UHGV virus genome: UHGV-0377591
DNA from: a virus
Length of the DNA: 44,209 nt
Direction: 5' to 3' (one strand)
The notes beneath the pieces were generated by a model. The model was not told where the DNA came from. It worked only from the letters and a program-made list of their open reading frames with translations, and did not search any database. Both the position numbers and the translations under genes were made by a program. Within the stretch, counting starts at the first letter, position 1; every line of letters begins with the position of its first letter. Below, one piece after another: positions 282 through 41,119 of the stretch.

Positions 282-311
282 GTCAATTACTCCTTAGTCA
301 GTTGATATGTG

Positions 312-325
312 AATAGTACCATATT
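312..325 (-). promoter_or_regulatory. Imperfect operator palindrome AATAG-TACC-ATATT upstream of the HTH gene
   Basis: Minus-strand reading gives TACTATTCACAT about 30 nt upstream of the HTH start, the same core as the class II promoters below; no good -35. Confidence 0.4.
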
Positions 326-345
326 AATTATTTTAGAAAAGCCCA

Positions 346-374
346 TTGACATGTGAATAGTTCGCTATTATAGT
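346..374 (+). promoter_or_regulatory. Early sigma70-like promoter (class I) with operator palindrome in the spacer
   Basis: TTGACA (346-351), 17-bp spacer, TATAGT (369-374); AATAG-TTCG-CTATT at 356-369 lies inside the spacer. Confidence 0.6.
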
Positions 375-3715: not shown

Positions 3716-5890
3716 ATGCAAGACTTACTGTTTAAAGATACTGAAACTTTTAGCGAAGCCGATTTGAAAAAGGTTGGGGCTTACCGGTACTCGGAAGACC
3801 CATCAACAGAGATTATTCTCGCCACTTACGCGTTTAACGATGAACCAGTGGAGGTTTACGACCCTACAAAAGGCCGAAATATACCTAGAGAACTGCGACG
3901 TTGCCTTGCTGGCCTTGAAAAGCCGAATTACGGGTTGAAACTTGTTGGTCACAATTTCCTTCAATTTGACAGACTCGTCATAGAGCGCTGCTGGGGTTAC
4001 AAAATTCACCCAACTAACATCATTGATACGATGCTTCTTGCGTTTCGACACGCGCTGCCCGGGTCACTGGCGGCGTTGTGTGAAGTACTTGGGGTGTCAG
4101 CAGAAAATGCGAAGGATAAACGCGGCAAGGCTCTGATTCAGCGTTTTTCTAAACCGACGCCGAAGAACTACAAAATACGTCGCTACACCGCGGATACACA
4201 CCCGGAAGAGTGGGCCTGGTTTATTAAGTACGGTATTAGCGACATTACATCGATGCGTGAAGTCTTCCATAAGCTGCCGCGTTGGGGTAACTCAGAGTTC
4301 GAGGACCGGGTACTGGAACTGGACCAATTAATCAACGACCGCGGGTTTAAGGTTGACGTCGCACTGGCGGAAGCCGCGATTGAAGCCGTGGAGAAGCACA
4401 AAGCGCAGTTACAGGAAGAAGCCCAGCGCAAATACGGCGGCTCGCTTACTGGTAAAGACTTCCTTCCTATTCTGCGTGAACTGGCCCCTGCGCATCGCAT
4501 CCATAACGCACAGAAGTCTACTCTTAACGACCTGCTGGCTGACGAGGATTTACCCGACGATGCACGCATGATTATCGAAATGCGCCTCGGGGCCGCGTCA
4601 ACTGCGTCAACGAAATATAACCCGCTGTTGCTAGGCCGCTCGTCTGACGACCGCCGTCGTGGTTGCATCCAGTACGGCGGAGCTAAGCGTACATTACGAT
4701 TTGCCGGTAAAGGCTTCCAGCCGCAGAACCTGGCGCGCGGGTATTATCATGATGAGGAACTGGATAAAGGCATTTCAGCGTTACTTAAGGGGCGGGCGCA
4801 CCGACGATTCGATGTCGCTAAATTAACGGCATCGACGGTGCGTAGCTGCATTATACCGGAAGCTGGGCATAAGTTTGTCGTTGCCGATTACTCTAACGTC
4901 GAAGGTCGTGGGTTGGCGTGGCTGGCTGGCGAAGACGATTTAATAGAAGTATTTGTAAACGGGGTTGATGTGTATAAGAAACTCGCATCAACCGTGTTCA
5001 ACGTGGCGTATGAAGACGTAACAAAGGACCAAAGACAAATAGCCAAAGCAATGGTTCTGGGCCTCGGCTACGCGGGGGGTGTCGGTGCTTTCGTCACGTT
5101 TGCTAAAAACTTAGGTCTTGATTTGAATGATATGACACGCACTTTAGACGGAACTTTCCCGGACCATATTTGGGCCGCTACCGCACGCGGTTACGAGTGG
5201 GCGCGTATCCAGGAAGCAAAGCGACCGCCGCATCCTGGTGAGAAGGATGACCGACCATCGTATATTCTTGATAAGAAAGTGTGGCGTACCTGTGATGCGT
5301 TAAAACGTATGTATCGGGAAGCTAATCCTGCAATAGTCCAATTCTGGCGAGATATTGAAGACGCGGCAATGGCAGCTATCCGCAATCCAGGTAAAGAGTT
5401 CACCGCAGGCCCGCGCGGCGTTAAGTTTTCGCGTAACGTAGAAACAGACAACAACGGCAACAAGGTCGCCGGTTGGTGGTTGCGTATGACGTTGCCGTCG
5501 GGCCGCGTTATGTCTTACCCTGGCGTCGGGTTAAGCGTGTCGAAAGAGACAGACGAAGACGGAAAGGTGTCTACTAACGTGCGCATCAAGTACCAGGGCG
5601 AAAACCAGTTAACCCGTCAGTGGGGCTTCCAGTACACCTACTCCGGTAAACTGGTGGAAAACTGCACGCAGGCGCTGTGCCGCGATTTGCTGGCTAATGC
5701 GCTGCTGAACGTTGAAGCAAACGGCTATCCAATTGTACTTCATGTTCACGATGAGATTATCTGCGAGACCCCAGATTTACCGGAATACAATGTAGCTGAA
5801 CTGGAACGATTGATGTGCGAATTACCGAAGTGGGCAGAGGGTTTCCCTCTTGTAGCGGAAGGTGCGGAGATGAAGCGTTATGCTAAGTAA
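3716..5890 (+). CDS. Family A (Pol I-like) DNA polymerase with 3'-5' exonuclease domain, 724 aa
   Basis: Exo I motif DTETFS near the N-terminus; polymerase motif C HVHDEIICE near the C-terminus. Confidence 0.9.
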   Translation: MQDLLFKDTETFSEADLKKVGAYRYSEDPSTEIILATYAFNDEPVEVYDPTKGRNIPRELRRCLAGLEKPNYGLKLVGHNFLQFDRLVIERCWGYKIHPTNIIDTMLLAFRHALPGSLAALCEVLGVSAENAKDKRGKALIQRFSKPTPKNYKIRRYTADTHPEEWAWFIKYGISDITSMREVFHKLPRWGNSEFEDRVLELDQLINDRGFKVDVALAEAAIEAVEKHKAQLQEEAQRKYGGSLTGKDFLPILRELAPAHRIHNAQKSTLNDLLADEDLPDDARMIIEMRLGAASTASTKYNPLLLGRSSDDRRRGCIQYGGAKRTLRFAGKGFQPQNLARGYYHDEELDKGISALLKGRAHRRFDVAKLTASTVRSCIIPEAGHKFVVADYSNVEGRGLAWLAGEDDLIEVFVNGVDVYKKLASTVFNVAYEDVTKDQRQIAKAMVLGLGYAGGVGAFVTFAKNLGLDLNDMTRTLDGTFPDHIWAATARGYEWARIQEAKRPPHPGEKDDRPSYILDKKVWRTCDALKRMYREANPAIVQFWRDIEDAAMAAIRNPGKEFTAGPRGVKFSRNVETDNNGNKVAGWWLRMTLPSGRVMSYPGVGLSVSKETDEDGKVSTNVRIKYQGENQLTRQWGFQYTYSGKLVENCTQALCRDLLANALLNVEANGYPIVLHVHDEIICETPDLPEYNVAELERLMCELPKWAEGFPLVAEGAEMKRYAK

Positions 5891-18705: not shown

Positions 18706-18813
18706 TCTTTAATCCTTTGGTTAAGAGGTTACAGGTTAATGGTAAATGCGCCAGACGGGAACCACCCGCTTTTCGTGTGCGACACTAGGCGCAAAATTAT
18801 TCTATCACATTAC

Positions 18814-18842
18814 TTGCGCACCCCAACATAATAGGATACTAT
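18814..18842 (+). promoter_or_regulatory. Class II promoter with operator palindrome overlapping the -10
   Basis: TTGCGC (18814-18819), 17-bp spacer, TACTAT (18837-18842); AATAG-GATA-CTATT at 18830-18843. Confidence 0.5.
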
Positions 18843-18883
18843 TCACTTACACCAACAATGTTAACTCAAACAGGATCTACACC

Positions 18884-19075
18884 ATGACAGGTATTACTAT
18901 GTTCTTCTTAATCATTATCGTTTTAGTTTATTTTATCCCATTTCTCGTGGCGCATATGCGCAACCATAAAGCTAAATTAGCGATATTCATGGCTAATCTG
19001 TTTCTCGGTTGGGTTCTGCTGCCGTGGGTATTTATTTTAATCTGGGCGTGCAACTCGAATGTCAAAGAGAAGTGA
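18884..19075 (+). CDS. Small two-transmembrane protein, 63 aa (candidate superinfection-immunity or holin-like)
   Basis: MTGITMFFLIIIVLVYFIPFLVAHMRNHKAKLAIFMANLFLGWVLLPWVFILIWACN; AGGA ribosome-binding site; first gene of the rightward insert. Confidence 0.55.
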   Translation: MTGITMFFLIIIVLVYFIPFLVAHMRNHKAKLAIFMANLFLGWVLLPWVFILIWACNSNVKEK

Positions 19076-19114
19076 GCTAGTATAGGACAAATCCTAAACA
19101 CGAGGAAGTAAAGC

Positions 19115-20245
19115 ATGGCTCATAAGAAAATAACCGACGAACAGTTACGGGAAGAATTGAACGCCGGAACAAAAATTATTGATATCGCACGTAAGTATGG
19201 AATCTCAGACCGCGTTATCCGTATCCGTAAAGCGAAGCTGGCTAAGAAAGGTGTAGGCCACGGTCGCGACGTTAGTCACCTTGTGCCTGACGGCTACAAG
19301 ATTAAAGGTACGTCGTCTCTGGTGGACGAGTTCGGCAACACTAAACTGCAATGGGTTAAGACCGACACTGACGCAGAACGTCAGGTCGAGTTGATGAAAG
19401 CTGTAATCGAGGGCATGAAGTCAGAGATTACGCCGATTGCGCCTGTTAAAGCCGTTCGCGCCAAACGTGACGATAAACTACTTAATCTTTACACTGTATC
19501 TGATTTCCATCTCGGTATGCTGGCCTGGGCCGACGAGAGCGGCGACGACTGGGACATGAAGATTGCAGAAGACCTGTTCTCCCGATGGTTCGATGCGGCG
19601 TTTCAGAAAGCACCAGATGCAGGAACTGGGGTTATTAACCTGCTGGGTGACTTCGCGCACTTCGATAGTCTGGATGCGGTTACGCCAGCGAGTGGTCATG
19701 TTCTTGATGCGGACACTCGTTATCAGAAACTGGTCCGCTACATGATTCGTATGGTACGCCGTGTTGTCGGTATGGCGCTGGTTAAGCATAAAAATGTTCG
19801 CTTGCTTATCGTGCAAGGGAATCACGACGAAAGTGGCATGATTTGGTTAGCTGAGATGTTTAGTACGCTGTACGACAATGAGCCGCGTGTGTTCGTAGAT
19901 ACGTCGCCGGATGTTTACAAGATGGTTCAACACGGCAAAACGACGCTGTTCTTTACACACGGCCATAAATGCAGGTTTGAGGTGGTCGAACCGATTATGA
20001 TTGCCAAGTTCCGCAAAGCGTTCGGCGAGAGCGTTTACAGCTACGCCCACGTAGGCCACCTGCACCATCAGAAGATTGTAGAAAGCCGTAACATGATTGT
20101 TGAGCAACACCGCACCTTAGCGGCTAAAGACGCCTACGCCTCGCGCGGCGGATGGATGTCGGGCCGTAGTGCAAATGTAATTACTTATAGCGCCGAATAT
20201 GGCGAGGTCGCACGTTTAACTATTTCACCGGAGATGCTGGGATGA
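19115..20245 (+). CDS. Calcineurin-like (Mre11/SbcD-type) metallophosphoesterase with N-terminal HTH-like domain, 376 aa
   Basis: Motifs VSDFHLG, LLGDFAHFD, VQGNHDE, FTHGHK, HVGHLHH; N-terminal TKIIDIARKYGISDRVIRIRK. Confidence 0.75.
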   Translation: MAHKKITDEQLREELNAGTKIIDIARKYGISDRVIRIRKAKLAKKGVGHGRDVSHLVPDGYKIKGTSSLVDEFGNTKLQWVKTDTDAERQVELMKAVIEGMKSEITPIAPVKAVRAKRDDKLLNLYTVSDFHLGMLAWADESGDDWDMKIAEDLFSRWFDAAFQKAPDAGTGVINLLGDFAHFDSLDAVTPASGHVLDADTRYQKLVRYMIRMVRRVVGMALVKHKNVRLLIVQGNHDESGMIWLAEMFSTLYDNEPRVFVDTSPDVYKMVQHGKTTLFFTHGHKCRFEVVEPIMIAKFRKAFGESVYSYAHVGHLHHQKIVESRNMIVEQHRTLAAKDAYASRGGWMSGRSANVITYSAEYGEVARLTISPEMLG

Positions 20246-20730
20246 AAGATATTGTGATTTTCGATTTAGACGGGACATTGGCGGACGGTACTCATCGTTT
20301 ACACCTGCTACCGAAAGATAACTACAACGAAACATGGGCGTGGAAGCCATTTAACATGGCGTGCAAAGATGATTCGCCGATATATGACAACATCCACTTG
20401 TGCAACACGCTGTGACATACCGGGATGACCATAATCATCCTTACCGGGCGAAGCGACGACGCCGAGGAAGAAACTCGTGAGTGGTTACGTAAAAACAATG
20501 TCAAGTTCGACGTTCTGTTAATGCGCAGCAAGCACGACAACAGAAAAGACATCGTAATTAAAGAAGAGGTGTTACGTGCTATCGGGCTGGAGAGAATATT
20601 GTGTGCGTTCGACGACTCTCCAGCGGTAATAAAGCATTTCCGCGGACTCGGTATAACCACTCACGCGGTTACTGAATACGACTGTAACGGGAACTCTACA
20701 CACTTAAAATCACACGGGAGCGATAAATAA
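20242..20730 (+). pseudogene. HAD-superfamily phosphatase (polynucleotide 3'-phosphatase-like) interrupted by an in-frame TGA at 20413-20415
   Basis: Motif I VIFDLDGTLA lies before the stop; motifs ILTGRSDD, HDNRKD and AFDDS lie after it in the same frame. By recollection resembles the phosphatase domain of T4 polynucleotide kinase. Confidence 0.6.
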
Positions 20731-21284
20731 TGGCTAAGGTAATTATTCTTAATGGCCCTGCGGGCTGCGGGAAAGACACACTTGCTATGGCGCTGGTAGA
20801 AATGGGCTTTGCGAAAGGAACTACCAGTTTCAAGAATCCAATGTTCAATATCGCTCTGGCGGCGTTAGGCCCGGATGCTTACCACGAGTTTCTCGACGGC
20901 TACGACGACCGGGCGCGGAAAGAAAAGCCAGAAGGCTTCCTTAATGGCTTGTCGCGGCGTCAGTTCATGATTGCTATATCTGAGCAATTCATTAAACCGG
21001 TACTTGGTAGTGATTATTTCGGTAAGTATCTTGCTGGAAACTTGCCAGACGGCGACGAAGTTTTTGTAGTGTCCGATGGCGGGTTCGCCAGCGAAGTAGC
21101 CCCTATCGTCGCCGCGGGTCATGATGTAAGAATCGTCCGCTTGCACCGAGAAGGCTATACGTTTGAGGGGGACAGCCGTGGTTATCTGTATGGCGTTGAT
21201 GGTGTAAAAGATTGCGACACCTACATCATACCGGGGGACATTAAATCGAACGTTATAGACATTGCTTTAAAATTAGGTTTGTAA
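20730..21284 (+). CDS. P-loop kinase (dNMP kinase-like or polynucleotide 5'-kinase-like), 184 aa
   Basis: Walker A ILNGPAGCGKDT; ATGA-type overlap with the HAD gene stop. Confidence 0.65.
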   Translation: MAKVIILNGPAGCGKDTLAMALVEMGFAKGTTSFKNPMFNIALAALGPDAYHEFLDGYDDRARKEKPEGFLNGLSRRQFMIAISEQFIKPVLGSDYFGKYLAGNLPDGDEVFVVSDGGFASEVAPIVAAGHDVRIVRLHREGYTFEGDSRGYLYGVDGVKDCDTYIIPGDIKSNVIDIALKLGL

Positions 21285-21285
21285 G

Positions 21286-21312
21286 AAAAAGGCCCCTTTC
21301 GGGGCCTTAGTT
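21286..21312. terminator. Bidirectional rho-independent terminator
   Basis: AAAAA-GGCCCC-TTTC-GGGGCC-TTAGTTTTA between the convergent kinase and major tail protein genes. Confidence 0.8.
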
Positions 21313-25781: not shown

Positions 25782-26831
25782 TTAAGCCACTACACCAGTT
25801 ACCAGGAAGGCAATCGGTACATGCTTACGGTCGACAACACGGTTCCAGTTGGAGGCGTTCGCCAGATCCTGCCAGGAAGCGGAGCGTGCAACAGTCTCGG
25901 TGCCGTTACCGGTGATTACTGCGCTGGTGAAGCTGTAGCCCAGCGGGTGCAGCAACCAGGTCTTACGGGTCCACAGGGTTTCGACACCACCACCGTTACC
26001 ACGAGACGCTTCGCGTTCGTATTCCAGCGGGTTAGACGGGTTGCCTTCGCCGTAACCGATAGCGCCGTTGCCGAAGATGATAGAAATGAACTTACGGCTA
26101 CCGCCAGTACCAACTACGGTCATGCTGTCGTCAACAATCACACGGTAACCCTGGTAGGTGGCGAACAAGGTGTCGTTGTCCGCGTCTTTGATGAAGTCAA
26201 TAAGCTGCTGCTTACGCGCCTGCGCATAAACGAAGCTGTGCATCGCGATAGCGCCCAGCACTTCACCGCCGTTACCCATCAGAGCATCACCCATAGTCTG
26301 GGTAGCGTCGATGAATGCGCCTGCGTCGAAGCCCAGAGTAGCGGACACGTCGATAACCATGTCGTTCTGCTCGTGGTATGCATCGGTAGCGGCTACGTTG
26401 TCGTTGTACAGACCGAGCGCGGTAGCAATCAGACGACGTTGTGCCTGGCGCTGCCAGAAGTTATCAAGACGAGAAGCCACGGATTGCAGCGGATTCTGAC
26501 TGGTCAGTTCGACAGTCAGGTCAGCCTGGCCAAAACCTTCGTTCAGGTAGGCAACGCGCGCCATCATCTCACCAGTCTGCACATTACGCGGGGTTGCGAT
26601 ATCCTGGTATACATCGTTCGAGTAGTTCGGCTCGATAGAAGTATCAATCGCTTTCCAGAAAGGAATGTTTGCGATGTTGGACGGGCCGCGGGCAATCTCA
26701 GCGGCGTACGGAGTCGGGGTCAGGATACCGGACTGGAAGAACGCGGTTTTTTCTACCGGGTCCTCGGTCATATAAGACGCCAGGACCGGGATGTTGCCAG
26801 TTACGATATCGCCGATAGTGGTAATTGCCAT
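25782..26831 (-). CDS. Major capsid protein, 349 aa
   Basis: Follows the scaffold gene and is followed by a terminator; typical size; the long antisense ORF 25740..27329 is low-complexity and was rejected. Confidence 0.85.
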   Translation of the reverse strand: MAITTIGDIVTGNIPVLASYMTEDPVEKTAFFQSGILTPTPYAAEIARGPSNIANIPFWKAIDTSIEPNYSNDVYQDIATPRNVQTGEMMARVAYLNEGFGQADLTVELTSQNPLQSVASRLDNFWQRQAQRRLIATALGLYNDNVAATDAYHEQNDMVIDVSATLGFDAGAFIDATQTMGDALMGNGGEVLGAIAMHSFVYAQARKQQLIDFIKDADNDTLFATYQGYRVIVDDSMTVVGTGGSRKFISIIFGNGAIGYGEGNPSNPLEYEREASRGNGGGVETLWTRKTWLLHPLGYSFTSAVITGNGTETVARSASWQDLANASNWNRVVDRKHVPIAFLVTGVVA

Positions 26832-26833
26832 TA

Positions 26834-27535
26834 TTATTTCCTCAGGGCTTTAAGTTGCCGTTCAAATTCGGCAGGGTTCGATTTATACAGAGCTAAACGC
26901 TCCGCTTCACTCATGTCTTTAAACGCTGGTGCGGCCCCGCCGCCTTTGCCACCGGAAGCCCCGCCGCCGGAAGCTGCATTTGCTTTAATCAAATGCGAAA
27001 ACGCTTTGTGTTCACGCAGGTATTTGCGGAACTGTTCCGGGTCAGTCGTGATTACATTACCGTCTGCGCCCACAAACTTAGTAACCACATCATCACCTTC
27101 GAACTCAGTCTTAACGAACGGAGCAAGAATGTCTACTGCTTCCGGGGTAATAAAGTCACCTGCGAAAGAGCCTAACACCGCTTTACGTTCGCTGCCGAGG
27201 ATGCGCTCAGCCATTTTGGTGATGCGACCATCTTTCTCGGCTAACACCGGGTCATACTGGCTACGAATCGTCTTTTCGAACTCGTCCATCTTACCAGCGG
27301 CTTTTAGCGCCTCCTGGTGCGCGCGCTGACGTTCCTCTTCGGCCTCTTTTGCTTTACGGGCGGCTTCTTTCTTCTCCGCCAGCAATGCTTCCTGATTGGC
27401 CTTAAGTCCGGCAACTTCTTTCTCAATCATCGCCTGAACTTCTTCAGCGGTGAACATTTTTGGAGCGTCGCCACCGCCAGATTTATCTTCTGCCCCAGCT
27501 TCTTCCTGGAACGGATAGTGTAAAAAACGATTCAT
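26834..27535 (-). CDS. Scaffolding protein
   Basis: Start moved to ATG 27535 (the track start is TTG). Lys/Glu/Ala-rich coiled-coil EEVQAMIEKEVAGLKANQEALLAEKKEAARKAKEAEEERQRAHQEALKAAG. Confidence 0.7.
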   Translation of the reverse strand: MNRFLHYPFQEEAGAEDKSGGGDAPKMFTAEEVQAMIEKEVAGLKANQEALLAEKKEAARKAKEAEEERQRAHQEALKAAGKMDEFEKTIRSQYDPVLAEKDGRITKMAERILGSERKAVLGSFAGDFITPEAVDILAPFVKTEFEGDDVVTKFVGADGNVITTDPEQFRKYLREHKAFSHLIKANAASGGGASGGKGGGAAPAFKDMSEAERLALYKSNPAEFERQLKALRK

Positions 27536-27617
27536 AGTCAGTATGTCCCCTGGACGTTGGAATCCGGGCCTCCCGGATTTACATGTCAAGAATAAATTAT
27601 TCCAACATACAAGGCAA

Positions 27618-27881
27618 CTATTCCAGAATATTCCTCACGTAATCCTGCAACATGAACACTTTCAGTCTCAGTTGCCGTACACATTCGGCGTTCTGAACAT
27701 CGATAGCTAAATCCTCGTCAGCGTCGATACTTGGCGGTGCCAGTTTGCACGGCGGCTGCATCATCGTCGTATCCGGGGATGGAATTGGCGTTGGCAACGG
27801 CGTGGGACTTGAGCAGGACGCGAGCATCGTCGAAAGTGCACACGCTGCGGCCAGGCGTTTTAATGTACTTAACGACTTCAC
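27618..27881 (-). CDS. Outer-membrane spanin (Rz1-like lipoprotein), 87 aa
   Basis: GTG start with GAGG ribosome-binding site; lipobox LASC with Cys at position 23; proline-rich mature region SSPTPLPTPIPSPDTTMMQPP; starts inside the i-spanin gene in another frame. Confidence 0.7.
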   Translation of the reverse strand: MKSLSTLKRLAAACALSTMLASCSSPTPLPTPIPSPDTTMMQPPCKLAPPSIDADEDLAIDVQNAECVRQLRLKVFMLQDYVRNILE

Positions 27882-28113
27882 GGGTAATCACCTCTGATTT
27901 CGTCTTGCCTTCGTTGTCAGCGGCGGCGGCCTTAGATTCGTCCTGCTGCTGCCGTTGTGTTTTCTTCGCTAACTCAGCCTGTGCTTTCTGCTGTTGCTGC
28001 GAAACGAGATTCGCCCGGCCTTCGTTCCAGCCGCTGCGATACTGGTAGATTCCGTAGCCGTATGTCAGGAGAATGAAACATGCTCCAGCTACGACAGTTG
28101 CGTTAAGATTCAT
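27718..28113 (-). CDS. Inner-membrane spanin (Rz-like), 131 aa
   Basis: N-terminal transmembrane segment ATVVAGACFILLTYGYGIY followed by Gln-rich helical region QQQQKAQAELAKKTQRQQQ; strong AGGGGA ribosome-binding site. Confidence 0.7.
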   Translation of the reverse strand: MNLNATVVAGACFILLTYGYGIYQYRSGWNEGRANLVSQQQQKAQAELAKKTQRQQQDESKAAAADNEGKTKSEVITREVVKYIKTPGRSVCTFDDARVLLKSHAVANANSIPGYDDDAAAVQTGTAKYRR

Positions 28114-28363
28114 GTTTCCCCTTTCTCGATAAGTAAAGCCCCGCTTTAAGGCGGGGCGCTAGTCCTTATCATTTAAACATAGAAACGGCGTAATCTCAGT
28201 AAACCAGTTACTTTTTACACAAGCAATAGAGTATGGCCCTTCCGAACGCGTCAGCGTAACTACACTCAGGACTTACGTCCCGCTCCGTTACCTGCCCGCG
28301 CCGCGGTCGCTTGCTCATACTTCACAAGCTCAGGTGGAGCTTATCATATTTTCAGTGAAAAGT

Positions 28364-28379
28364 CAACTATTCGAATAGT
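28364..28379. promoter_or_regulatory. Perfect 16-bp palindrome AACTATTCGAATAGTT (everted operator half-sites)
   Basis: CTATT-CG-AATAG core; 55 bp upstream of the class II promoter. Confidence 0.5.
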
Positions 28380-28432
28380 TTATTCCAACGTTTACAATTG
28401 AGTGGAATAACTGGAATACGTAAATAAATAGT

Positions 28433-28461
28433 TTGCGCGCACCAACATAATAGGGTACTAT
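28433..28461 (+). promoter_or_regulatory. Class II promoter with operator palindrome overlapping the -10
   Basis: TTGCGC (28433-28438), 17-bp spacer, TACTAT (28456-28461); AATAG-GGTA-CTATT at 28449-28462. Confidence 0.5.
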
Positions 28462-28488
28462 TCAGTTAACTTAAACAGGAGATGAGAA

Positions 28489-29010
28489 ATGGTTACTACA
28501 GTAATTACTTTCCCTGCGTATGTAGGGGCGAAAATATGCAGGGCTAAAAATGATGTTCGCTACTATTTGAACGCTTTTTACATAGACCCTGAAGGATTGA
28601 TAGTGTCTACGGACGGTCATAGATTGTTCTGCGACAATGTGAAGACCAACGTTGAGAAAGGGACTCTCATAGACATCAAAGGGAGAGAGCCTTCTAAATT
28701 TAACTACGCGGAGGTAAACCACGACAACGGCAGTGTATCTTTCTATAACGATAATCGTGCGCTTATATGTACACTTCCGGTAGATGTTGTAGAAGGAAAC
28801 TTTCCTGACTGGAGACGCGTGGCGCACATCACACCGGGTGTTGTCGATAGTATAGGGTTCACCCTGCGTTATTTGGCAGACGCGTACAAGATTTCTAAGG
28901 CATACAAAAATGAAATTGCTCGTTTCGATTTCCAGGACCAAACCAGAGGATGCAAAATACAATTTTCAAACACGGCCTTTATGGTGTTAATGCCTGCGCG
29001 ATTTAAATAA
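28489..29010 (+). CDS. Hypothetical protein, 173 aa, encoded on the opposite strand inside the head-gene module
   Basis: ORF track; own promoter and AGGAGATGAGAA ribosome-binding site; own terminator. Confidence 0.65.
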   Translation: MVTTVITFPAYVGAKICRAKNDVRYYLNAFYIDPEGLIVSTDGHRLFCDNVKTNVEKGTLIDIKGREPSKFNYAEVNHDNGSVSFYNDNRALICTLPVDVVEGNFPDWRRVAHITPGVVDSIGFTLRYLADAYKISKAYKNEIARFDFQDQTRGCKIQFSNTAFMVLMPARFK

Positions 29011-29015
29011 AACTA

Positions 29016-29040
29016 AGGCCCCATTATGGGGCCTTTTATC
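29016..29040. terminator. Bidirectional rho-independent terminator
   Basis: AGGCCCC-ATTAT-GGGGCCT-TTTTAT. Confidence 0.75.
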
Positions 29041-29497
29041 ATCCTGGTTTAGAGACCTTCGCCGCTTTGCTTACGGCCTCCGCACCATCGGCATCAGTAA
29101 CTTTAACGAAGTATTCACCAGCCGCATTAACAGTCAGAGACAGAGCCTCTTCCGGGGCGTTCACCACTTCCTTCCCGTCTTTGTACCAGGTCAGTACATA
29201 CGGCGCTTTACCCGCCTTAACTTCGACAGTGATGGTGGCGCTACCGTCGACCAGCTCGGTGTCTTTCGGTTGCACAGAGAAATACACATCGCCAGCATCT
29301 GCCAGATACGGAATCTCATAAAGCATACCTGCCGCTGGAAGTGCAATACCGGTTTTATCTGCAAACGGCATATCATCTACCGGCGTACCCAGTACACTTT
29401 CGTCCTCAATAAATACCACGTTCTCACCAGAGCCAGACACGCGGGCGTACTGGACTACGCGTCGCGACGGTACATCAGTTACTTTGAAAAAGCACAT
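29039..29497 (-). CDS. Ig-like domain virion protein
   Basis: Motif APYVLTWYKDGKEV, paralogous in style to the 24995..25339 protein. Confidence 0.55.
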   Translation of the reverse strand: MCFFKVTDVPSRRVVQYARVSGSGENVVFIEDESVLGTPVDDMPFADKTGIALPAAGMLYEIPYLADAGDVYFSVQPKDTELVDGSATITVEVKAGKAPYVLTWYKDGKEVVNAPEEALSLTVNAAGEYFVKVTDADGAEAVSKAAKVSKPG

Positions 29498-29500
29498 AAA

Positions 29501-30124
29501 CTAAACCTCTTTCATTGAGTTAATCTTACGTAAGACGCCTTCGAAAAGGCGTGGGTCTATGCTATCGCAAAGACCTTTGTATTCATATGCTAATTCAATT
29601 TTTCTATGAAACCATGCTACGTGTGCCTCTTGAGCGGTTTCGTAAGCGCCTATTTGTTCAGATACGCCATCCACGGATACTTGAGCGATGAATCTTTTCT
29701 TTTGTTTATGGAAATGTACGCCGAGTGGGTGTTCGCCTCGAAGAGCGTCGTGGGCTGTTAGGAAAGTATTGAGGGATTTAGGGATAAAAACACAGTTAGA
29801 AGCATCGTAAACCTTATTTCCCGGGTTAAGTAAATCCTTATCTATCTGCCACCCAGGTACATAAAAATCATCAAACCAGACCTTGAAATTACTGAACACC
29901 AACCAATCGTCCGACACGCGGCAACCTATATAAGTTCTGTTTCTTTGCTGCCATTTCTTGTCGTAGCACCTCTTTAACATGTTCTTCCATACGGCGTAGG
30001 ACGCTATATGCACCCCTCCGCAACTTATTGGTGAAACATCGTTAATACCCACACCAAAAACAATTCCCATATTAAACCCTATAAGAAAACCCCATGAAGA
30101 TTGGTCGATGCCAGAGATAGGCAT
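29501..30124 (-). CDS. Putative homing endonuclease-like protein with AP2-like DNA-binding domain
   Basis: C-terminal AP2-like GVHFHKQKKRFIAQVSVDGVSEQIGAYETAQEAHVAW; N-terminal catalytic domain not assigned; true start probably internal. Confidence 0.45.
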   Translation of the reverse strand: MPISGIDQSSWGFLIGFNMGIVFGVGINDVSPISCGGVHIASYAVWKNMLKRCYDKKWQQRNRTYIGCRVSDDWLVFSNFKVWFDDFYVPGWQIDKDLLNPGNKVYDASNCVFIPKSLNTFLTAHDALRGEHPLGVHFHKQKKRFIAQVSVDGVSEQIGAYETAQEAHVAWFHRKIELAYEYKGLCDSIDPRLFEGVLRKINSMKEV

Positions 30125-30194
30125 ACCTTCATGGGGTTATATTCTTTCTCTATTTTTAGTAGTTCACCGACCAAAGCTAGCTACTAGATATACT

Positions 30195-31271
30195 TTATAC
30201 CGACCTAAGATATTCAGCAACCCTGTTATCTAACGCCGCCATCTCCTTCAAGGTTAAAGGTCTACCAAAAGCGTCGACGGATATTACCCGGAATTCCTCT
30301 GGGGATATCCCACTATTCCTGAATATAGCACCGCGGGTAGGTCCGAGTGCTTCATCCACGAACCATGCCGGTTGCTGTTTCAGGAACTCGTAATAGGTGG
30401 TGTCTGCGCTTACCTGCATACCGCCGTCCGCACCCTTAGCCGCGCGTTTTGCACCTTTATCTAGGAAGTCGAACTCCGAACTGATTACCGGTGCAGTGGT
30501 ACTTCGACATCCAAAATGGGCGGGGGGCATCGGACCTTTACCGATTTCCCACGTCATCCCGTCTCTGGCCCTGCAAATCGTACTGGTACGGCTGTCCAGC
30601 GTTGACACCCATTCGTATTTCTCGATGATGTCGTCGTTCTGGCGGTATGTCTCGTTGCGGGCTTCGTTGGATACGTGAGACAGCGCGGTGCGGATTACCG
30701 TAGCCGCGTTGCGTTCAGAGATGTCCGCCAGCCCACCAGCGCCTACGACATTTTTAACAATCTGCCGTGTGGTTTGGCCCTGAACAAACCCCATCTTAAC
30801 GCCAGTTACGAGGCGCGCGGCCTCCGTTTCACCCCAGCCTGCCATCAGCTTAGTGAAATCGACGGGCTTGTCGCTTAACGACAGCGGCTGAAACTCGGCA
30901 GCAGCCCACACCTGTTCGGCGGTAGGCGTAACAAATTCCGCGTCAACGTTGGCGGTCAGTGTTTTTACGTTCCACTCAGCCTCATATGCGGCCAGTTCCT
31001 TAAGGTCTTCTGTCAGCTTTGTTTGCCAGTCACCTGTAAGCCCCGTCAGTGCTTCTTCAAGGTCGCGTAACAGTTTATTCAGTCGCGCAGTGCTTCGCCC
31101 GTCGTCACCGAATAACAGCACCTGCCGTTTGATTTCGTCCCGCATCTCCTGAATGAACGGTGCGAGGTCTTTCACTTCACCGGACGCGGTGCGTTGCAGC
31201 CATATCTGGTGGCTGATTAGGGATGTAAGTAAGCTCATAGATAAACCCTGTGGCGCTAAAGTTAATAGCAT
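30195..31271 (-). CDS. Head morphogenesis protein (SPP1 gp7 / Mu F-like, by position and size)
   Basis: ORF track; immediately downstream of the portal gene. Confidence 0.65.
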   Translation of the reverse strand: MLLTLAPQGLSMSLLTSLISHQIWLQRTASGEVKDLAPFIQEMRDEIKRQVLLFGDDGRSTARLNKLLRDLEEALTGLTGDWQTKLTEDLKELAAYEAEWNVKTLTANVDAEFVTPTAEQVWAAAEFQPLSLSDKPVDFTKLMAGWGETEAARLVTGVKMGFVQGQTTRQIVKNVVGAGGLADISERNAATVIRTALSHVSNEARNETYRQNDDIIEKYEWVSTLDSRTSTICRARDGMTWEIGKGPMPPAHFGCRSTTAPVISSEFDFLDKGAKRAAKGADGGMQVSADTTYYEFLKQQPAWFVDEALGPTRGAIFRNSGISPEEFRVISVDAFGRPLTLKEMAALDNRVAEYLRSV

Positions 31272-31277
31272 ACTATA

Positions 31278-31300
31278 AGAAAGCCCCTTTCGGGGCTATA
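31278..31300 (-). terminator. Weak hairpin terminator/attenuator after the portal gene
   Basis: AGCCCC-TTTC/GAAA-GGGGCT followed on the minus strand by TTTCTTA. Confidence 0.4.
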
Positions 31301-31307
31301 GGCGAAC

Positions 31308-32789
31308 TTACTGCTGAGCGGTGTCTTGTTGCTGCGCCGACTGCGGAATCTCTCCTGCTACCCGAGCAACAGCACCTAACGGCAGCGGTGTATCCTCGAT
31401 AGCGTTCTGAATGTCTTCATCAGTCCAGTCGGTTACGCCAGCCTTACGCAGCGCGGCGTAATAAGCAGTGGCGGGTAACAAGCCAGCGTTAATATCCGCC
31501 ATCCACTGCGCGCGGTCCTGAGCGGTCATAGGTTGCAGGAAGAACTCCATATTCAGTTTGAACTCAATCTCTGTGCCTTCACGCAACCCTAGCATCGCAG
31601 CTACCCAGCGCAGCGCATCGGTATACGCCATGCTTACGTTACGTGCGATTGTCGCCATAACAGACGTATCAGCGCCACGTTGCAGACGGGCCGATTCAGC
31701 GGTGATTTGCTGAGTCGGGGTGATAAGCTGCGCGCCAATCTGGATGGCTTGGTTCTCTTTATCCAGCATGTTCTGCTTAGCGAGGTTGTTCTCTCCGGCC
31801 TGAACCAGAAACGCATTGCCGCCGTAACCGATGTTATGGCCCGAACGTGAACCCATTCGCACGCCGTGGGGGTTGGCCTCTTTCCACTGCTCCATGCTCA
31901 TATTCTCACCCGGGGCGATGAACAAAGTAGGCTGGCCTACTACGAAGCTGGATTCCTCATTGTCCGCGCTGTTGCGGAAATGCCCGATATTAAGTTCAGC
32001 CAACGGCAGCAAAGGCGCATCGTCTACAGTGGCGTCGTTGTTGCTTGCTCCGATGAACGTGAACGGGATTTTGCCGCGTAACTGTTCGCCAAGTTCCGGG
32101 AATATTTCGATTACTTCATCCTGGGCACCACCTCCGGCATCGAAGCGATAGATTCGCTGGCGATAGCGGCTGTCAATCAGGTCAAGGACACGGTATTGCT
32201 CACCGAACTTGGTTTCAAACTCTGCGCCAGGTTCTGAGTATTCCCACACCTCACGCAGCACGACCATTGTCACACGGTTAACCGAACCGATGCGGGTCAG
32301 TCGCCAGTTGATGATGTTCTCCGCAGTGTAGAACGCGATTACCGGGTTTAATAATCCTGCGTTCTGCTCTGCTGCCGTTGCCGCTGCTGTCTCCGGCGCG
32401 TCCACCAGCAGCCCGCCACGGCCAACCGAGTCAATCTCCATCAGCGTGTCCTGCGCGTGCTGCCACAGCCCAACACCGGAACCGTCGGCATTGTGCAACA
32501 GGTACTCCAGTTCAGGTGGAATAATTTGCTCGGGGTCTTTGCGCATGACACTGCCGACCATCCCGGCCAGGGTACGTTTAGTGAAGTTGTAGCAGATAGC
32601 GCCGTTCTCATATTCTTCCTGTCGCTGGGCTGCGTAGGTCGGGTCGGGTTCGTTCTTACCGACGTTGCGCAGATAGCTAATAAGGTCACCTTCCAGCGCA
32701 TGACGTACCTTCTGCCATTTATCGAAGTGGTGCAGCCATTCCCGGTGTTTTGTCTTAACACCTTGATTCTGACCGTTCATAGTTAACAT
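31308..32789 (-). CDS. Portal protein, 493 aa
   Basis: Size and position immediately after the large terminase gene. Confidence 0.85.
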   Translation of the reverse strand: MLTMNGQNQGVKTKHREWLHHFDKWQKVRHALEGDLISYLRNVGKNEPDPTYAAQRQEEYENGAICYNFTKRTLAGMVGSVMRKDPEQIIPPELEYLLHNADGSGVGLWQHAQDTLMEIDSVGRGGLLVDAPETAAATAAEQNAGLLNPVIAFYTAENIINWRLTRIGSVNRVTMVVLREVWEYSEPGAEFETKFGEQYRVLDLIDSRYRQRIYRFDAGGGAQDEVIEIFPELGEQLRGKIPFTFIGASNNDATVDDAPLLPLAELNIGHFRNSADNEESSFVVGQPTLFIAPGENMSMEQWKEANPHGVRMGSRSGHNIGYGGNAFLVQAGENNLAKQNMLDKENQAIQIGAQLITPTQQITAESARLQRGADTSVMATIARNVSMAYTDALRWVAAMLGLREGTEIEFKLNMEFFLQPMTAQDRAQWMADINAGLLPATAYYAALRKAGVTDWTDEDIQNAIEDTPLPLGAVARVAGEIPQSAQQQDTAQQ

Positions 32790-32801
32790 TGAATAATCCT
32801 C

Positions 32802-34052
32802 TTAAAGTGCGAAAGTCACCGGGATGTTGATTACTGGTTTAACCACCGGCATCTCGTAAACTACAGGATAGCCCAGGGCATCTGCCATATGGTCGATGAT
32901 GCCGTCTTTGGATGGCTCCCCGTTATCGTCATATGCCTGCTGCTCCAGCGTCTTCGCTATCTCAGGGCATAAGTGGTCGTTAACCCACAGCTTACCTTTT
33001 TCCAGTGCGGTATTCACCGCTAAAACACGGTCTTTAACCGGCGGGTTGGCAGATTTAGCGCGAACATCGAACCCCGCCTGCTGTAGTAAGGCAATATCGG
33101 AGATTGATGCCGAGTTTGTCTTGCGGTTCTTGCCGCTGGCGTCGGGGTACACGACGATGCGGTGGCCCTGCGACTTCCACTTCTCTGTAATTACGCGCAC
33201 GGTATCCGGCGTATCGAACAGGCCTTTCAGTTCTGCTACCGCGTGCCAGCCGTCTTTACGTTGCACATACACGGCGCTGGCGTTCTTCGTAACGTTGAAG
33301 TCCTGCCCGATGTACAGCGTGTCGCCCGGTTGGATTGTCTCTTTGCTGCGATGCTTACGTCGGTCGTAGGCGTAGTAGACGCTGCCGTATGTCAGGTTAA
33401 CGAACTCCCCATTCAGGTACGCGTTAATCAGTTGCGCTGGGTAAGTCTCGGTCAGCGAGCTAATGTAGTCAGGCGGCAGGAATCGCGCGTTCTCGTGGGT
33501 GGAAGCCTGCACCATTGAGTAACTCGGTGTCGGGTTCTCTTTGAACTTGGCGTAGACGAACTTGAACCCTTCCGGCGTCGTGGTGACGGAGATGTGGTTG
33601 GTTACACCAGGGATAACCAGACGCATACGGGCGACGATTTTGTTCCATGCCAGTTCAGCTTTTTCTCGGCTCAGTACGTCCAGTTCATCCACGACCGCGG
33701 CGGCGATTTTGAAACCCACAATCGAACCGGGGTTATCCATAGAACGACAGATAACCGTTCCGAGCACCGTCTTACCGCGAGTAACCACGACCTCTTTGTC
33801 TCCGGATTTAACCAGCACATCAAGGCCGAGCAGGTTAGCCGCTTCCTCGAATGTCGGGTAGAAGATGTCACGGATGGCGGGATAGGTAGGGCCGAAGTAG
33901 CCCAGGCGCGTACCAGGGTGCTTGAGCATAAACGTAAGCAGGTCAAGGCAGCCGACAAACGTCTTGCCACTACCGAAGCCGCCTACGTAGGCCTTGTATT
34001 TGTTGTCACAATTCAGGAACAGTGCCTGCGGCGCGGATAGCTGAATACTCAT
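32802..34052 (-). CDS. Terminase large subunit, 416 aa
   Basis: Walker A YVGGFGSGKT; Walker B AAVVDELD; followed by the portal gene. Confidence 0.9.
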   Translation of the reverse strand: MSIQLSAPQALFLNCDNKYKAYVGGFGSGKTFVGCLDLLTFMLKHPGTRLGYFGPTYPAIRDIFYPTFEEAANLLGLDVLVKSGDKEVVVTRGKTVLGTVICRSMDNPGSIVGFKIAAAVVDELDVLSREKAELAWNKIVARMRLVIPGVTNHISVTTTPEGFKFVYAKFKENPTPSYSMVQASTHENARFLPPDYISSLTETYPAQLINAYLNGEFVNLTYGSVYYAYDRRKHRSKETIQPGDTLYIGQDFNVTKNASAVYVQRKDGWHAVAELKGLFDTPDTVRVITEKWKSQGHRIVVYPDASGKNRKTNSASISDIALLQQAGFDVRAKSANPPVKDRVLAVNTALEKGKLWVNDHLCPEIAKTLEQQAYDDNGEPSKDGIIDHMADALGYPVVYEMPVVKPVINIPVTFAL

Positions 34053-39620: not shown

Positions 39621-39763
39621 CAGCTACCTCCAGTTCGCCGTAAACATGCTCGTTGTCGCCGCTGCATACACTGCAAACTCGCAACTCAGCATAAAGCTGT
39701 TCCAGTTTCTCAACCGTCAGATACTTATACATCTTCCGTCTCTCCTCTCGTTTGTGTAAATGA

Positions 39764-39792
39764 ATAGTAGCCTATTCTATCTTAATGTGCAA
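39764..39792 (-). promoter_or_regulatory. Class II promoter (leftward) with operator palindrome
   Basis: Minus strand TTGCAC, 17-bp spacer, TACTAT; plus-strand AATAG-TAGC-CTATT at 39763-39776. Confidence 0.5.
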
Positions 39793-41056: not shown

Positions 41057-41090
41057 AACCCTAACTCCTCTGTCTCGTTTCGATAAGTGA

Positions 41091-41119
41091 ATAGTATCCT
41101 ATTATATTGGGGTGTGCAA
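41091..41119 (-). promoter_or_regulatory. Class II promoter (leftward) with operator palindrome
   Basis: Minus strand TTGCAC, 17-bp spacer, TACTAT; plus-strand AATAG-TATC-CTATT at 41090-41103; extra half-site GAATAGTT at 41122-41129. Confidence 0.55.

Follow-up and report, generated by a model that had tools for sequence, protein, structure and literature searches.

A mobile phage cassette encodes a predicted mini β clamp that keeps the docking pocket and lacks the ring interface

Introduction

What is the role of a single gene that is read rightward among the leftward head genes of a phage? The question is raised by the virus genome UHGV-0377591, of which the whole analysed stretch of 44,209 nucleotides (nt) is referred to here as the window. 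A first-pass annotation, made from the letters of this stretch without database searches, had pointed to positions 28433-29040, where a protein of 173 amino acids (aa) would be encoded against the direction of its neighbours, and had left the fold of that protein unassigned. The gene is present as described: 28489-29010 on the plus strand encodes exactly the protein that was quoted, and it is the sole rightward gene among the leftward capsid, scaffold and spanin genes and the leftward decoration, HNH, head-morphogenesis, portal and TerL genes, all of them on the minus strand. A 163-aa open reading frame (ORF) that overlaps it on the minus strand (28471-28962) was rejected, as every homology falls in the plus-strand frame.

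Over the 2-kb region around the gene, the identity to Escherichia phage vB_EcoS_fPoEco01 is 97.9%, and about 300 Guernseyvirinae records match there; the source is therefore taken to be a Kagunavirus, a siphovirus of E. coli about 44 kb in size. Statements on gene content refer to fPoEco01, which is the closest annotated relative, near-identical and fully annotated. One strand of that phage carries the terminase, portal, head, tail and lysis genes, and the other carries a family-A DNA polymerase, helicases, a primase-helicase, a DUF2800 nuclease and a DUF2815 single-stranded DNA (ssDNA)-binding protein; its annotation contains neither an RNA polymerase gene nor a clamp-loader gene. As argued below, the protein of interest is, by profile and model comparison, a truncated β clamp, and it travels in a mobile cassette.

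Identity of the Encoded Protein

Profile searches connect the protein to DnaN, the β sliding clamp of bacteria. Pfam returns a sub-threshold match to the DnaN central domain PF02767 (17.7 bits, cut-off 27) and none to the N- or C-terminal domain, TIGR00663 scores 21.4 bits against a cut-off of 137.65, and PHROGs assigns the protein to phrog_3007 (E 6.5e-36), with a weaker match to a processivity-factor family. When searched with phmmer against the PDB, residues 16-116 align with E. coli β 144-252 and residues 117-171 with β 312-365. The same split is recovered by hhalign, in which a 63-homolog profile matches E. coli DnaN with a probability of 99.65% (E 4e-25), covering 140-253 and 312-366 and skipping 254-311.

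The fold, which the first-pass annotation could not name and for which it had recommended structure prediction and a fold search, can be assigned by profile, PDB and structure comparison as that of a β-clamp (DnaN) fragment. An AlphaFold2 (AF2) monomer model built from the 63-homolog alignment reaches a predicted local distance difference test (pLDDT) of 95.1 and a predicted template-modelling (pTM) score of 0.90, and the best 50 listed Foldseek matches in the PDB are all β clamps. On these sequence and model comparisons, the protein is a mini β-clamp that consists of DnaN domain II and the C-terminal half of domain III, in the mutual arrangement that they have in the clamp. In the subfamily to which it belongs, the second channel-facing helix of domain II is replaced by a loop. 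Judged as a member of the sliding clamps, the protein fails on length (173 versus about 366 aa), curated scores, domain count and interface, and passes on fold and pocket.

Two labels circulate for this family in GenBank. The first, RusA-like Holliday junction resolvase, was considered as a candidate identity and rejected: Pfam gives the DnaN central domain only, with no RusA match, and the leading structural matches are sliding clamps. This label (PHROG 3007, 12598) has been copied into at least 25 of 60 sampled phage records and is a propagated misannotation. The other label is 'DNA polymerase III sliding clamp', from which one phage genome paper reasons that the gene is a processivity clamp (PMC9825357). 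Neither a full sliding clamp nor a RusA-like resolvase describes the protein correctly, and the gene is known as annotation, not as biology.

The Docking Pocket and the Ring Interface

According to a 2024 review, the clamp-motif pocket of β binds all known clamp partners (PMC11139829). It is formed by subsite I (R152, L155, T172, G174, H175, R176, L177, P242, R246, V247, V360 and M362) and subsite II (H175, N320, Y323, V344, M362, P363, M364 and R365), and the dimer interface that closes the ring involves I78, F106, R103, I272, L273, E298 and E304 (PMC11139829). The two surfaces have met opposite fates in the mini-clamp. Domain I and residues 254-311 are missing, and every listed interface residue falls there. 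On the side of the pocket, 15 of the 18 residues are identical to E. coli β, the differences being N320T, V344T and M364A, and the pocket motifs can be read in the window protein as RYYLN, TDGHRL, FPDWRRV, GF..Y and MPAR. The share of the pocket that domain III contributes comes entirely from its C-terminal half, and the protein is therefore the minimal piece of DnaN that still forms the pocket.

The same contrast is apparent across the family. Of the 14 positions that reach 90% conservation or more when 200 family representatives are aligned, 12 belong to the pocket. Mean conservation is 0.80 in the pocket versus 0.33 elsewhere, a difference that none of 100,000 permutations reaches. Pocket residues are 93-100% conserved while overall identity is 25-30%. 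The mini-clamp would probably bind clamp-motif peptides off the ring.

Mobility of the Cassette

It is confirmed that the mini-clamp gene sits in an autonomous mobile accessory cassette with textbook moron anatomy. The mobile unit, mapped independently by comparison of relatives, spans 28418-29037 and agrees almost exactly with the 28433-29040 segment that had been singled out from the letters alone. In phage K1ind3, which is collinear on both sides, 14 bp stand in place of window 28419-29014, and the cassette is missing there and in its relatives. In fBC-Eco01 the 28418-29037 unit, 96.8% identical and with the hairpin included, lies between the portal and head-morphogenesis genes. Cornellvirus W5_chr3 carries a 66%-identical gene at the site used in the window, on the opposite strand, and PhiSTP2 carries a 43%-identical gene at a third site, between the scaffold and lysis genes and again on the opposite strand. 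Altogether, the cassette occupies the window's site in 21 of 302 related records, the PhiSTP2-type cassette is found in 4 of 19 matching records, and only a minority of Guernseyvirinae carry the cassette, across three different sites.

Base composition points in the same direction, with 42.3% guanine plus cytosine (GC) in the cassette versus 50.4% in the window and 52-53% in the flanks, and with a GC skew that changes sign across the cassette. The codon differences between close relatives are mostly synonymous (4 synonymous versus 1 non-synonymous, and 7 versus 5). Thus, a promoter-class motif of its own and a terminator surround a single gene whose distribution is patchy and relocated and whose composition is deviant, and the acquired-accessory-gene layout proposed for the locus holds on the strength of its absence in K1ind3, its displacement in fBC-Eco01, the third site in PhiSTP2 and the low GC. 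No DNA match to the cassette was found in E. coli chromosomes.

Promoter, Leader and Terminator

The putative promoter of the cassette is σ70-like. It has 7 of 12 matches to the σ70 consensus and was missed by a generic promoter scan, and it encloses a palindrome, AATAG-N4-CTATT (28449-28462), that may act as an operator. A 19-nt core, ATAATAGGNTACTATTCA(C/G), lies across this region (28447-28465) and recurs in the window to a total of six copies, against 0.01 expected; none of 100 shuffles reaches six. Aligned, the copies have in common the extended consensus CTTGCRCACCCCAAYATAATAGGNTACTATTCAC, that is, TTGCRC-N17-TACTAT including the palindrome. The six copies against 0.01 expected, together with the extended consensus, argue for a real phage-specific promoter or operator class, in which the core motif would function as a promoter.

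The placement of the copies relative to genes rests on a rough transfer of coordinates to the fPoEco01 annotation. Upstream of a DicA/Cro-like repressor gene and of the early small-gene block there are three other copies, and the one at 39760 sits between two small genes in this block. Two tandem copies are located upstream of the repressor gene, which suggests autoregulated early promoters. The copy at 18828 lies inside the long ORF that holds an Imm_superinfect domain, and the start of the Imm_superinfect gene is therefore probably downstream of the motif. The cassette promoter would thus belong to the early-type promoter or operator class of the phage itself, with host RNA polymerase as its probable reader. 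The earlier claim that the gene has its own class II promoter stands as far as a promoter-class motif of its own is concerned, with six copies; the term 'class II' does not, given a σ70-like TTGCRC-N17-TACTAT element, and its T7 sense is ruled out because fPoEco01 lacks an RNA polymerase gene.

The ribosome-binding site is as strong as had been proposed, with AGGAG at 7 nt from the ATG. The leader TAACTTAAACAGGAG is retained upstream of the 66%-identical (W5_chr3) and 43%-identical (PhiSTP2) genes, although the promoters differ, that of PhiSTP2 being the near-consensus TTGACA-N17-TAATAT. It occupies 28466-28481 in the window and about 2470-2490 of locus L017 and about 2465-2485 of locus L018 at the other two loci, and it may be a translational enhancer or another RNA element.

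At the other end of the cassette, the hairpin at 29015-29035 has a 9-bp stem and a 3-nt loop, with folding energies of -15.8 kcal/mol on the plus strand and -16.3 kcal/mol on the minus strand (z about -2.5). A terminator scan caught the 29015-29041 hairpin on the minus strand, where it also ends the convergent leftward decoration gene, and the annotation of phage Schulenburg has terminators on both strands at the same place. Folding on both strands, the T-rich tails and the Schulenburg annotation all bear out the prediction of a bidirectional terminator. An Rfam search of 27600-29600 returned a sole match, a sub-threshold chance match at this terminator.

Distribution of the Mini-Clamp Family

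The family is large and mostly viral. An exhaustive profile search yielded 416 clusters at 50% identity (E ≤1e-30), nearly all of 170-260 aa, in which phage and prophage sequences predominate. By tblastn, homologs were detected in 232 phage records whose hosts include Escherichia, Salmonella, Klebsiella, Vibrio, Proteus, Burkholderia and Serratia, and BFVD holds many short viral homologs.

The genomic contexts are of two kinds, opposite-strand islands and early-operon genes. In Dhillonvirus EP23 the homolog forms an opposite-strand island among head genes and is followed on its own strand by Nmad5, and in Bcep781 it is gp15, annotated 'DNA Pol III b subunit fragment' and antisense among head genes. 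In Skate, Sf11 and ZCKP8 it ends an operon with a ParB/KorB-like regulator that converges on the capsid operon. The homolog of a Serratia prophage directly follows the CI repressor and precedes a DUF2800-ssDNA-binding-PolA module, and that of a Vibrio phage adjoins Dam and SSB. Homologs on the structural strand, which the first-pass annotation had named as evidence that would tell against an accessory gene, were never encountered, and the accessory reading stands. Some of the phages that carry a family member encode their own PolA, and others lack a DNA polymerase altogether; Kagunavirus and Dhillonvirus have the DUF2800-ssDNA-binding-PolA module in common.

Some observations concern individual members. 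In EP23, p07 (4101-4865 of locus L004) is nmad5 (Pfam Nmad5, E 2e-58), located directly downstream of the mini-clamp homolog on the same strand. In a study of Dhillonvirus and the Tmn defence, K-to-E mutations of nmad5 let phages escape Tmn and the gene is toxic when cloned; the anti-Tmn protein is a different one, ORF35, and the clamp gene is not mentioned (PMC11846954). A 680-aa protein of a soil metagenome contig (P0179, locus L010, 2722-4764) has an N-terminal mini-clamp fused to the polyvalent-protein domain LPD29 and lies beside a phage-type integrase, and a 1394-aa LPD-containing viral protein of the polyvalent type gives a weak fold match (TM 0.41). Domain fusions were considered as Rosetta stones and set aside as too few, most longer homologs holding the DnaN central domain only. 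A mini-clamp on conjugative plasmids was likewise discarded: the tblastn match that was examined (H96) is a full-length 425-aa DnaN paralog next to DinG, and the other plasmid matches look alike.

Search for a Phage-Encoded Partner

All six frames of the window were scanned for clamp-binding motifs, and no canonical motif was found in the phage PolA, helicase or primase. Real genes contain the matches QADLF (tail or connector protein; 22739-22725, minus strand), QMLLAF (small early ORF; 40274-40257, minus strand), QQLIDF (capsid protein) and QLALEL (a tail chaperone). The QADLF sequence is identical to an optimised clamp-binding peptide. An N-terminal MQDLLF of PolA (3716-3733, plus strand) was rejected as a clamp motif, as it directly precedes or overlaps DTET, the ExoI motif, and probably forms a buried strand; the MQDLLF and QADLF matches are both probably chance. 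No clamp-binding motif was detected in the operon neighbours of the homologs in EP23, Skate, ZCKP8 and the Vibrio phage.

Since the cassette occurs in a minority of Guernseyvirinae and at three sites, it cannot depend on a co-inherited partner gene. The lack of a convincing phage partner and the independent coming and going of the cassette together indicate that the ligands are most likely host proteins. Indeed, the sole feature common to all family-bearing phages is the repertoire of clamp-binding proteins of the host.

Proposed Function

The reading that we favour, at about even chances of being correct, is that the protein is an early-expressed, ring-incompetent 'pocket-only' clamp mimic that binds clamp-motif proteins, most likely those of the host, and sequesters or redirects them. 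In this model, host RNA polymerase would probably transcribe the cassette early, from the early promoter class of the phage. The soluble mini-clamp, unable to close the canonical ring, would then dock proteins that bear clamp-binding motifs of the Q-L-x-L-F type, the candidate host ligands being the clamp-loader δ subunit, Pol III α, Hda, the translesion polymerases and MutS/L. Their titration off the host clamp could shut off host replication or repair, or they could be redirected to phage DNA. For instance, a pocket-only mimic could trap δ while the phage replicates with its own PolA.

A broader proposal is put forward more tentatively: the more than 400 clusters at 50% identity may be a widespread phage family of soluble, sponge-like pocket-only clamp mimics that imitate the docking site of the central replication hub of the host and trap δ, Pol III α or repair and translesion factors, so that hub mimicry, not hub inhibition, would shut down or reprogramme host replication and repair.

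Several points weigh against the proposed mimic. Literature searches on truncated phage clamps turned up no functional study, and no binding, expression or phenotype data were found for any family member. The pocket motifs are the most conserved ones in all β clamps, and their conservation within the family partly reflects the detectability of homologs. The predicted cassette promoter is weak by consensus. Pure sequestration would harm phages that rely on host Pol III, such as the Sf11-like ones, and the family as a whole may not share a single mechanism. Several phages carry the gene within or beside replication, recombination or DNA-modification operons, where a constructive role in DNA metabolism fits at least equally well. 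A non-canonical ring, finally, retains a slight chance, as discussed below.

Among the roles that had been suggested for such an accessory gene, superinfection exclusion was not borne out: the protein is soluble and DnaN-like, and a separate Imm_superinfect gene exists elsewhere in the window. No sign of a membrane segment was seen in the mini-clamp, though no transmembrane prediction was made. The other suggestions, host takeover or anti-defence, are plausible on indirect grounds.

Alternative Explanations

Of the rival explanations, the one that survives best, although we regard it as unlikely, is a non-ring tethering or processivity factor of the kind represented by herpesvirus UL42 or UL44, which would contact DNA via channel-side helices and hold in its pocket a polymerase or a DNA-modifying enzyme of the phage or the host. 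Such a role would suit the position of the Serratia prophage homolog ahead of the PolA module, the adjacency of Dam and SSB in the Vibrio phage, the co-orientation with Nmad5 in Dhillonvirus and the PolA module common to Kagunavirus and Dhillonvirus. However, the phage PolA, helicase and primase lack a canonical clamp-binding motif, the MQDLLF of PolA being probably buried, and the cassette is dispensable, most Guernseyvirinae with the same PolA module being without it. With regard to DNA contact, the isoelectric point (pI) of 8.6 of the window protein and a Lys134 on the last helix that is 87% conserved in the family would favour tethering, whereas the family median pI is 6.8 and the second channel-facing helix of domain II is lost in this subfamily. 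Given these values and the pI of 5.25 of E. coli β, charge was discarded as an uninformative indicator of DNA binding. In addition, monomeric β gives no processivity (PMC11139829).

Less probable still is an anti-defence or defence accessory whose activity is independent of clamp-motif docking, either as a decoy of an immune sensor or as part of the Nmad5/Tmn interplay in Dhillonvirus. The moron anatomy and sporadic distribution are what such a gene would be expected to have, nmad5, the gene of the Tmn escape mutations, is its operon partner in Dhillonvirus, and the LPD29 fusion in an integrase-linked element and the weak polyvalent-type fold match are of the same character. Nevertheless, the defence-system library PADLOC-DB gave no match at E ≤1, anti-defence libraries not being part of that search; the anti-Tmn activity belongs to ORF35, in a study that never mentions the clamp gene; and within the family it is the pocket that is most strongly constrained.

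A true sliding clamp of new architecture is very improbable. The ring of six domains would be closed by four protomers of 1.5 domains each, for which the numbers agree (4 x 1.5 = 6), or by a dimer of half-domain-swapped dimers. Every clamp domain consists of a β-α-β-β-β unit in duplicate, and a lone half-domain could therefore pair with that of another copy; moreover, E. coli β*, with domains II-III only, is reported to be a clamp. Against this, all known interface residues are deleted, no clamp loader is encoded in the fPoEco01 annotation, and the AF2 monomer (pTM 0.90) keeps a pLDDT above 90 through the half-domain and gives no hint of an unsatisfied fold.

Finally, a decaying or selfish remnant of a captured host dnaN, of no function for the phage, is scarcely credible: the protein is a fragment of a host-type gene, as the name of Bcep781 gp15 has it, and is dispensable in relatives, but the same truncated architecture is kept in intact ORFs over more than 400 clusters at 50% identity, pocket residues remain 93-100% conserved where overall identity has fallen to 25-30%, close copies differ mostly by synonymous changes, and the gene has a putative promoter of its own, a strong ribosome-binding site and a terminator.

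The pocket-only mimic, if real, would be of interest for several reasons. All known partners of the β clamp in bacterial replication, repair and translesion synthesis dock at this one pocket, which is also a target for antibiotics. Imitation of a host hub would be a new phage strategy compared with the known phage proteins that bind the hub, and it could account for the silencing of host replication by small siphoviruses that have a PolA of their own. As a natural and stable module of 19.7 kDa, the protein would also supply a minimal monomeric pocket scaffold for structural biology and drug screening. The new-ring variant, if true, would represent a new sliding-clamp architecture of four 1.5-domain subunits.

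Genomic Surroundings of the Cassette

The features of the cassette, the copies of the core motif and the neighbouring genes are collected in Table 1.

Table 1. Coordinates of the cassette, its parts and its neighbours in the window
Feature	Position	Strand	Remarks
Mobile cassette (moron)	28418-29037	+	620 bp; promoter, leader/ribosome-binding site, mini-clamp ORF, terminator hairpin
Putative σ70-like promoter	28433-28461	+	-35 TTGCGC 28433-28438, 17-nt spacer, -10 TACTAT 28456-28461
Leader	28466-28488	+	Shine-Dalgarno AGGAG 28477-28481, 7 nt before ATG
Mini-clamp coding sequence	28489-29010	+	173 aa, 19.7 kDa, pI 8.6; protein begins MVTTVITFPAYVGAKICRAKN
Bidirectional intrinsic terminator	29015-29041	both	AAGGCCCC-ATT-ATGGGGCCTT with T-rich tails
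Core-motif copy	309-327	-	
Core-motif copy	353-371	-	
Core-motif copy	18828-18846	+	
Core-motif copy	28447-28465	+	
Core-motif copy	39760-39778	-	
Core-motif copy	41087-41105	-	
Capsid	25782-26831	-	
Scaffold	26834-27589	-	
Spanins	27618-28113	-	
Ig-like decoration	29039-29497	-	
HNH	29501-30124	-	
Head morphogenesis	30195-31271	-	
Portal	31308-32789	-	
TerL	32802-34052	-	

One gene away from the cassette, the HNH-endonuclease-like gene has a GC fraction of 0.415-0.43 and is absent in fBC-Eco01; on account of this absence and the low GC it is a second mobile element in the head module. A second opposite-strand island (18746-21308, plus strand) lies in the tail genes and encodes the Imm_superinfect protein, a metallophosphoesterase and a 184-aa P-loop-like protein. 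The latter has no Pfam match and seems to stand in the place where fPoEco01 has an HNH-like gene of opposite orientation. The promoter motif at 18828 is near the start of this island, inside the listed Imm ORF, and at its end the island has a bidirectional hairpin, AAGGCCCCTTTCGGGGCCTT (21289-21308), with exactly the same stem as the cassette terminator. GC-rich hairpins of the form (A)AGGCCCC-loop-GGGGCC(TT) recur at gene-module junctions (21289-21308, 29015-29035, 31282-31297 and 28138-28157), and the cassette insertions in K1ind3 and fBC-Eco01 start or stop at such hairpins, which suggests that moron exchange uses terminators as recombination joints.

A 300-bp non-coding stretch (28114-28418) separates the spanin start from the cassette; it is 95.7% conserved in K1ind3, and the Schulenburg annotation places a 36-aa ORF in it. 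A strong terminator-like hairpin (28138-28157, minus strand) lies there, immediately upstream of the spanin gene. In the replication region, the family-A DNA polymerase has 724 aa in the window (3716-5890) versus 1032-1062 aa in fPoEco01 (27185-30283) and EP23 (29110-32298). The Pol A matches of the fPoEco01 protein are split (residues 373-446 and 950-1029), which suggests an intein or other insertion that is absent from the window phage.

Comparison with Known Systems

Compared with DnaN (2POL/1MMI), the mini-clamp has 173 instead of 366 aa and is devoid of domain I, of 254-311 and of the second channel helix of domain II. Its best experimental proxy is the monomeric β mutant I272A/L273A, which supports no processive synthesis and binds δ about 50 times more tightly than the dimer does (dissociation constant about 7.5 nM; PMC11139829). 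Both proteins are ring-incompetent and still present the pocket. Unlike the mini-clamp, which is natural and has 1.5 domains, the mutant is engineered and has three.

A natural short form is found in E. coli β*, an ultraviolet-inducible DnaN product of domains II-III from an internal start, reportedly described by Skaliter and Paz-Elizur in 1996 and presumably starting near Met135. Its N-terminal truncation is at approximately the same domain I/II boundary, residue 1 of the mini-clamp corresponding to about DnaN 129. β* is said to oligomerise and to support processivity; it keeps the whole of domain III, whereas the mini-clamp is without the half-domain that carries the interface. With the herpesvirus factors UL42, UL44, PF-8 and BMRF1 the likeness is one of fold only, at 4-9% identity, and these factors, unlike the mini-clamp, have two full domains and a basic DNA-binding face and dock the C-terminus of the viral polymerase.

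As a genetic element, the cassette resembles the morons of lambdoid phages, which are said to go back to Juhala and Hendrix in 2000: as a promoter-gene-terminator unit it is inserted among late genes, some relatives have it and others do not, and its base composition deviates. In contrast to them, its host phage is of the virulent type, not a prophage, and its promoter would come from the phage's own early promoter class.

Small phage proteins that inhibit the clamp or the clamp loader reportedly include ORF240 of phage G1 and gp8 of N4, the latter targeting δ. Gp168 of the Staphylococcus phage Twort (PDB 7EVP) is, as proposed for the mini-clamp, a small early phage protein directed at the same host hub, the clamp and clamp loader. 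While Gp168, ORF240 and gp8 are unrelated in fold and bind the clamp or its loader, the mini-clamp would imitate the clamp.

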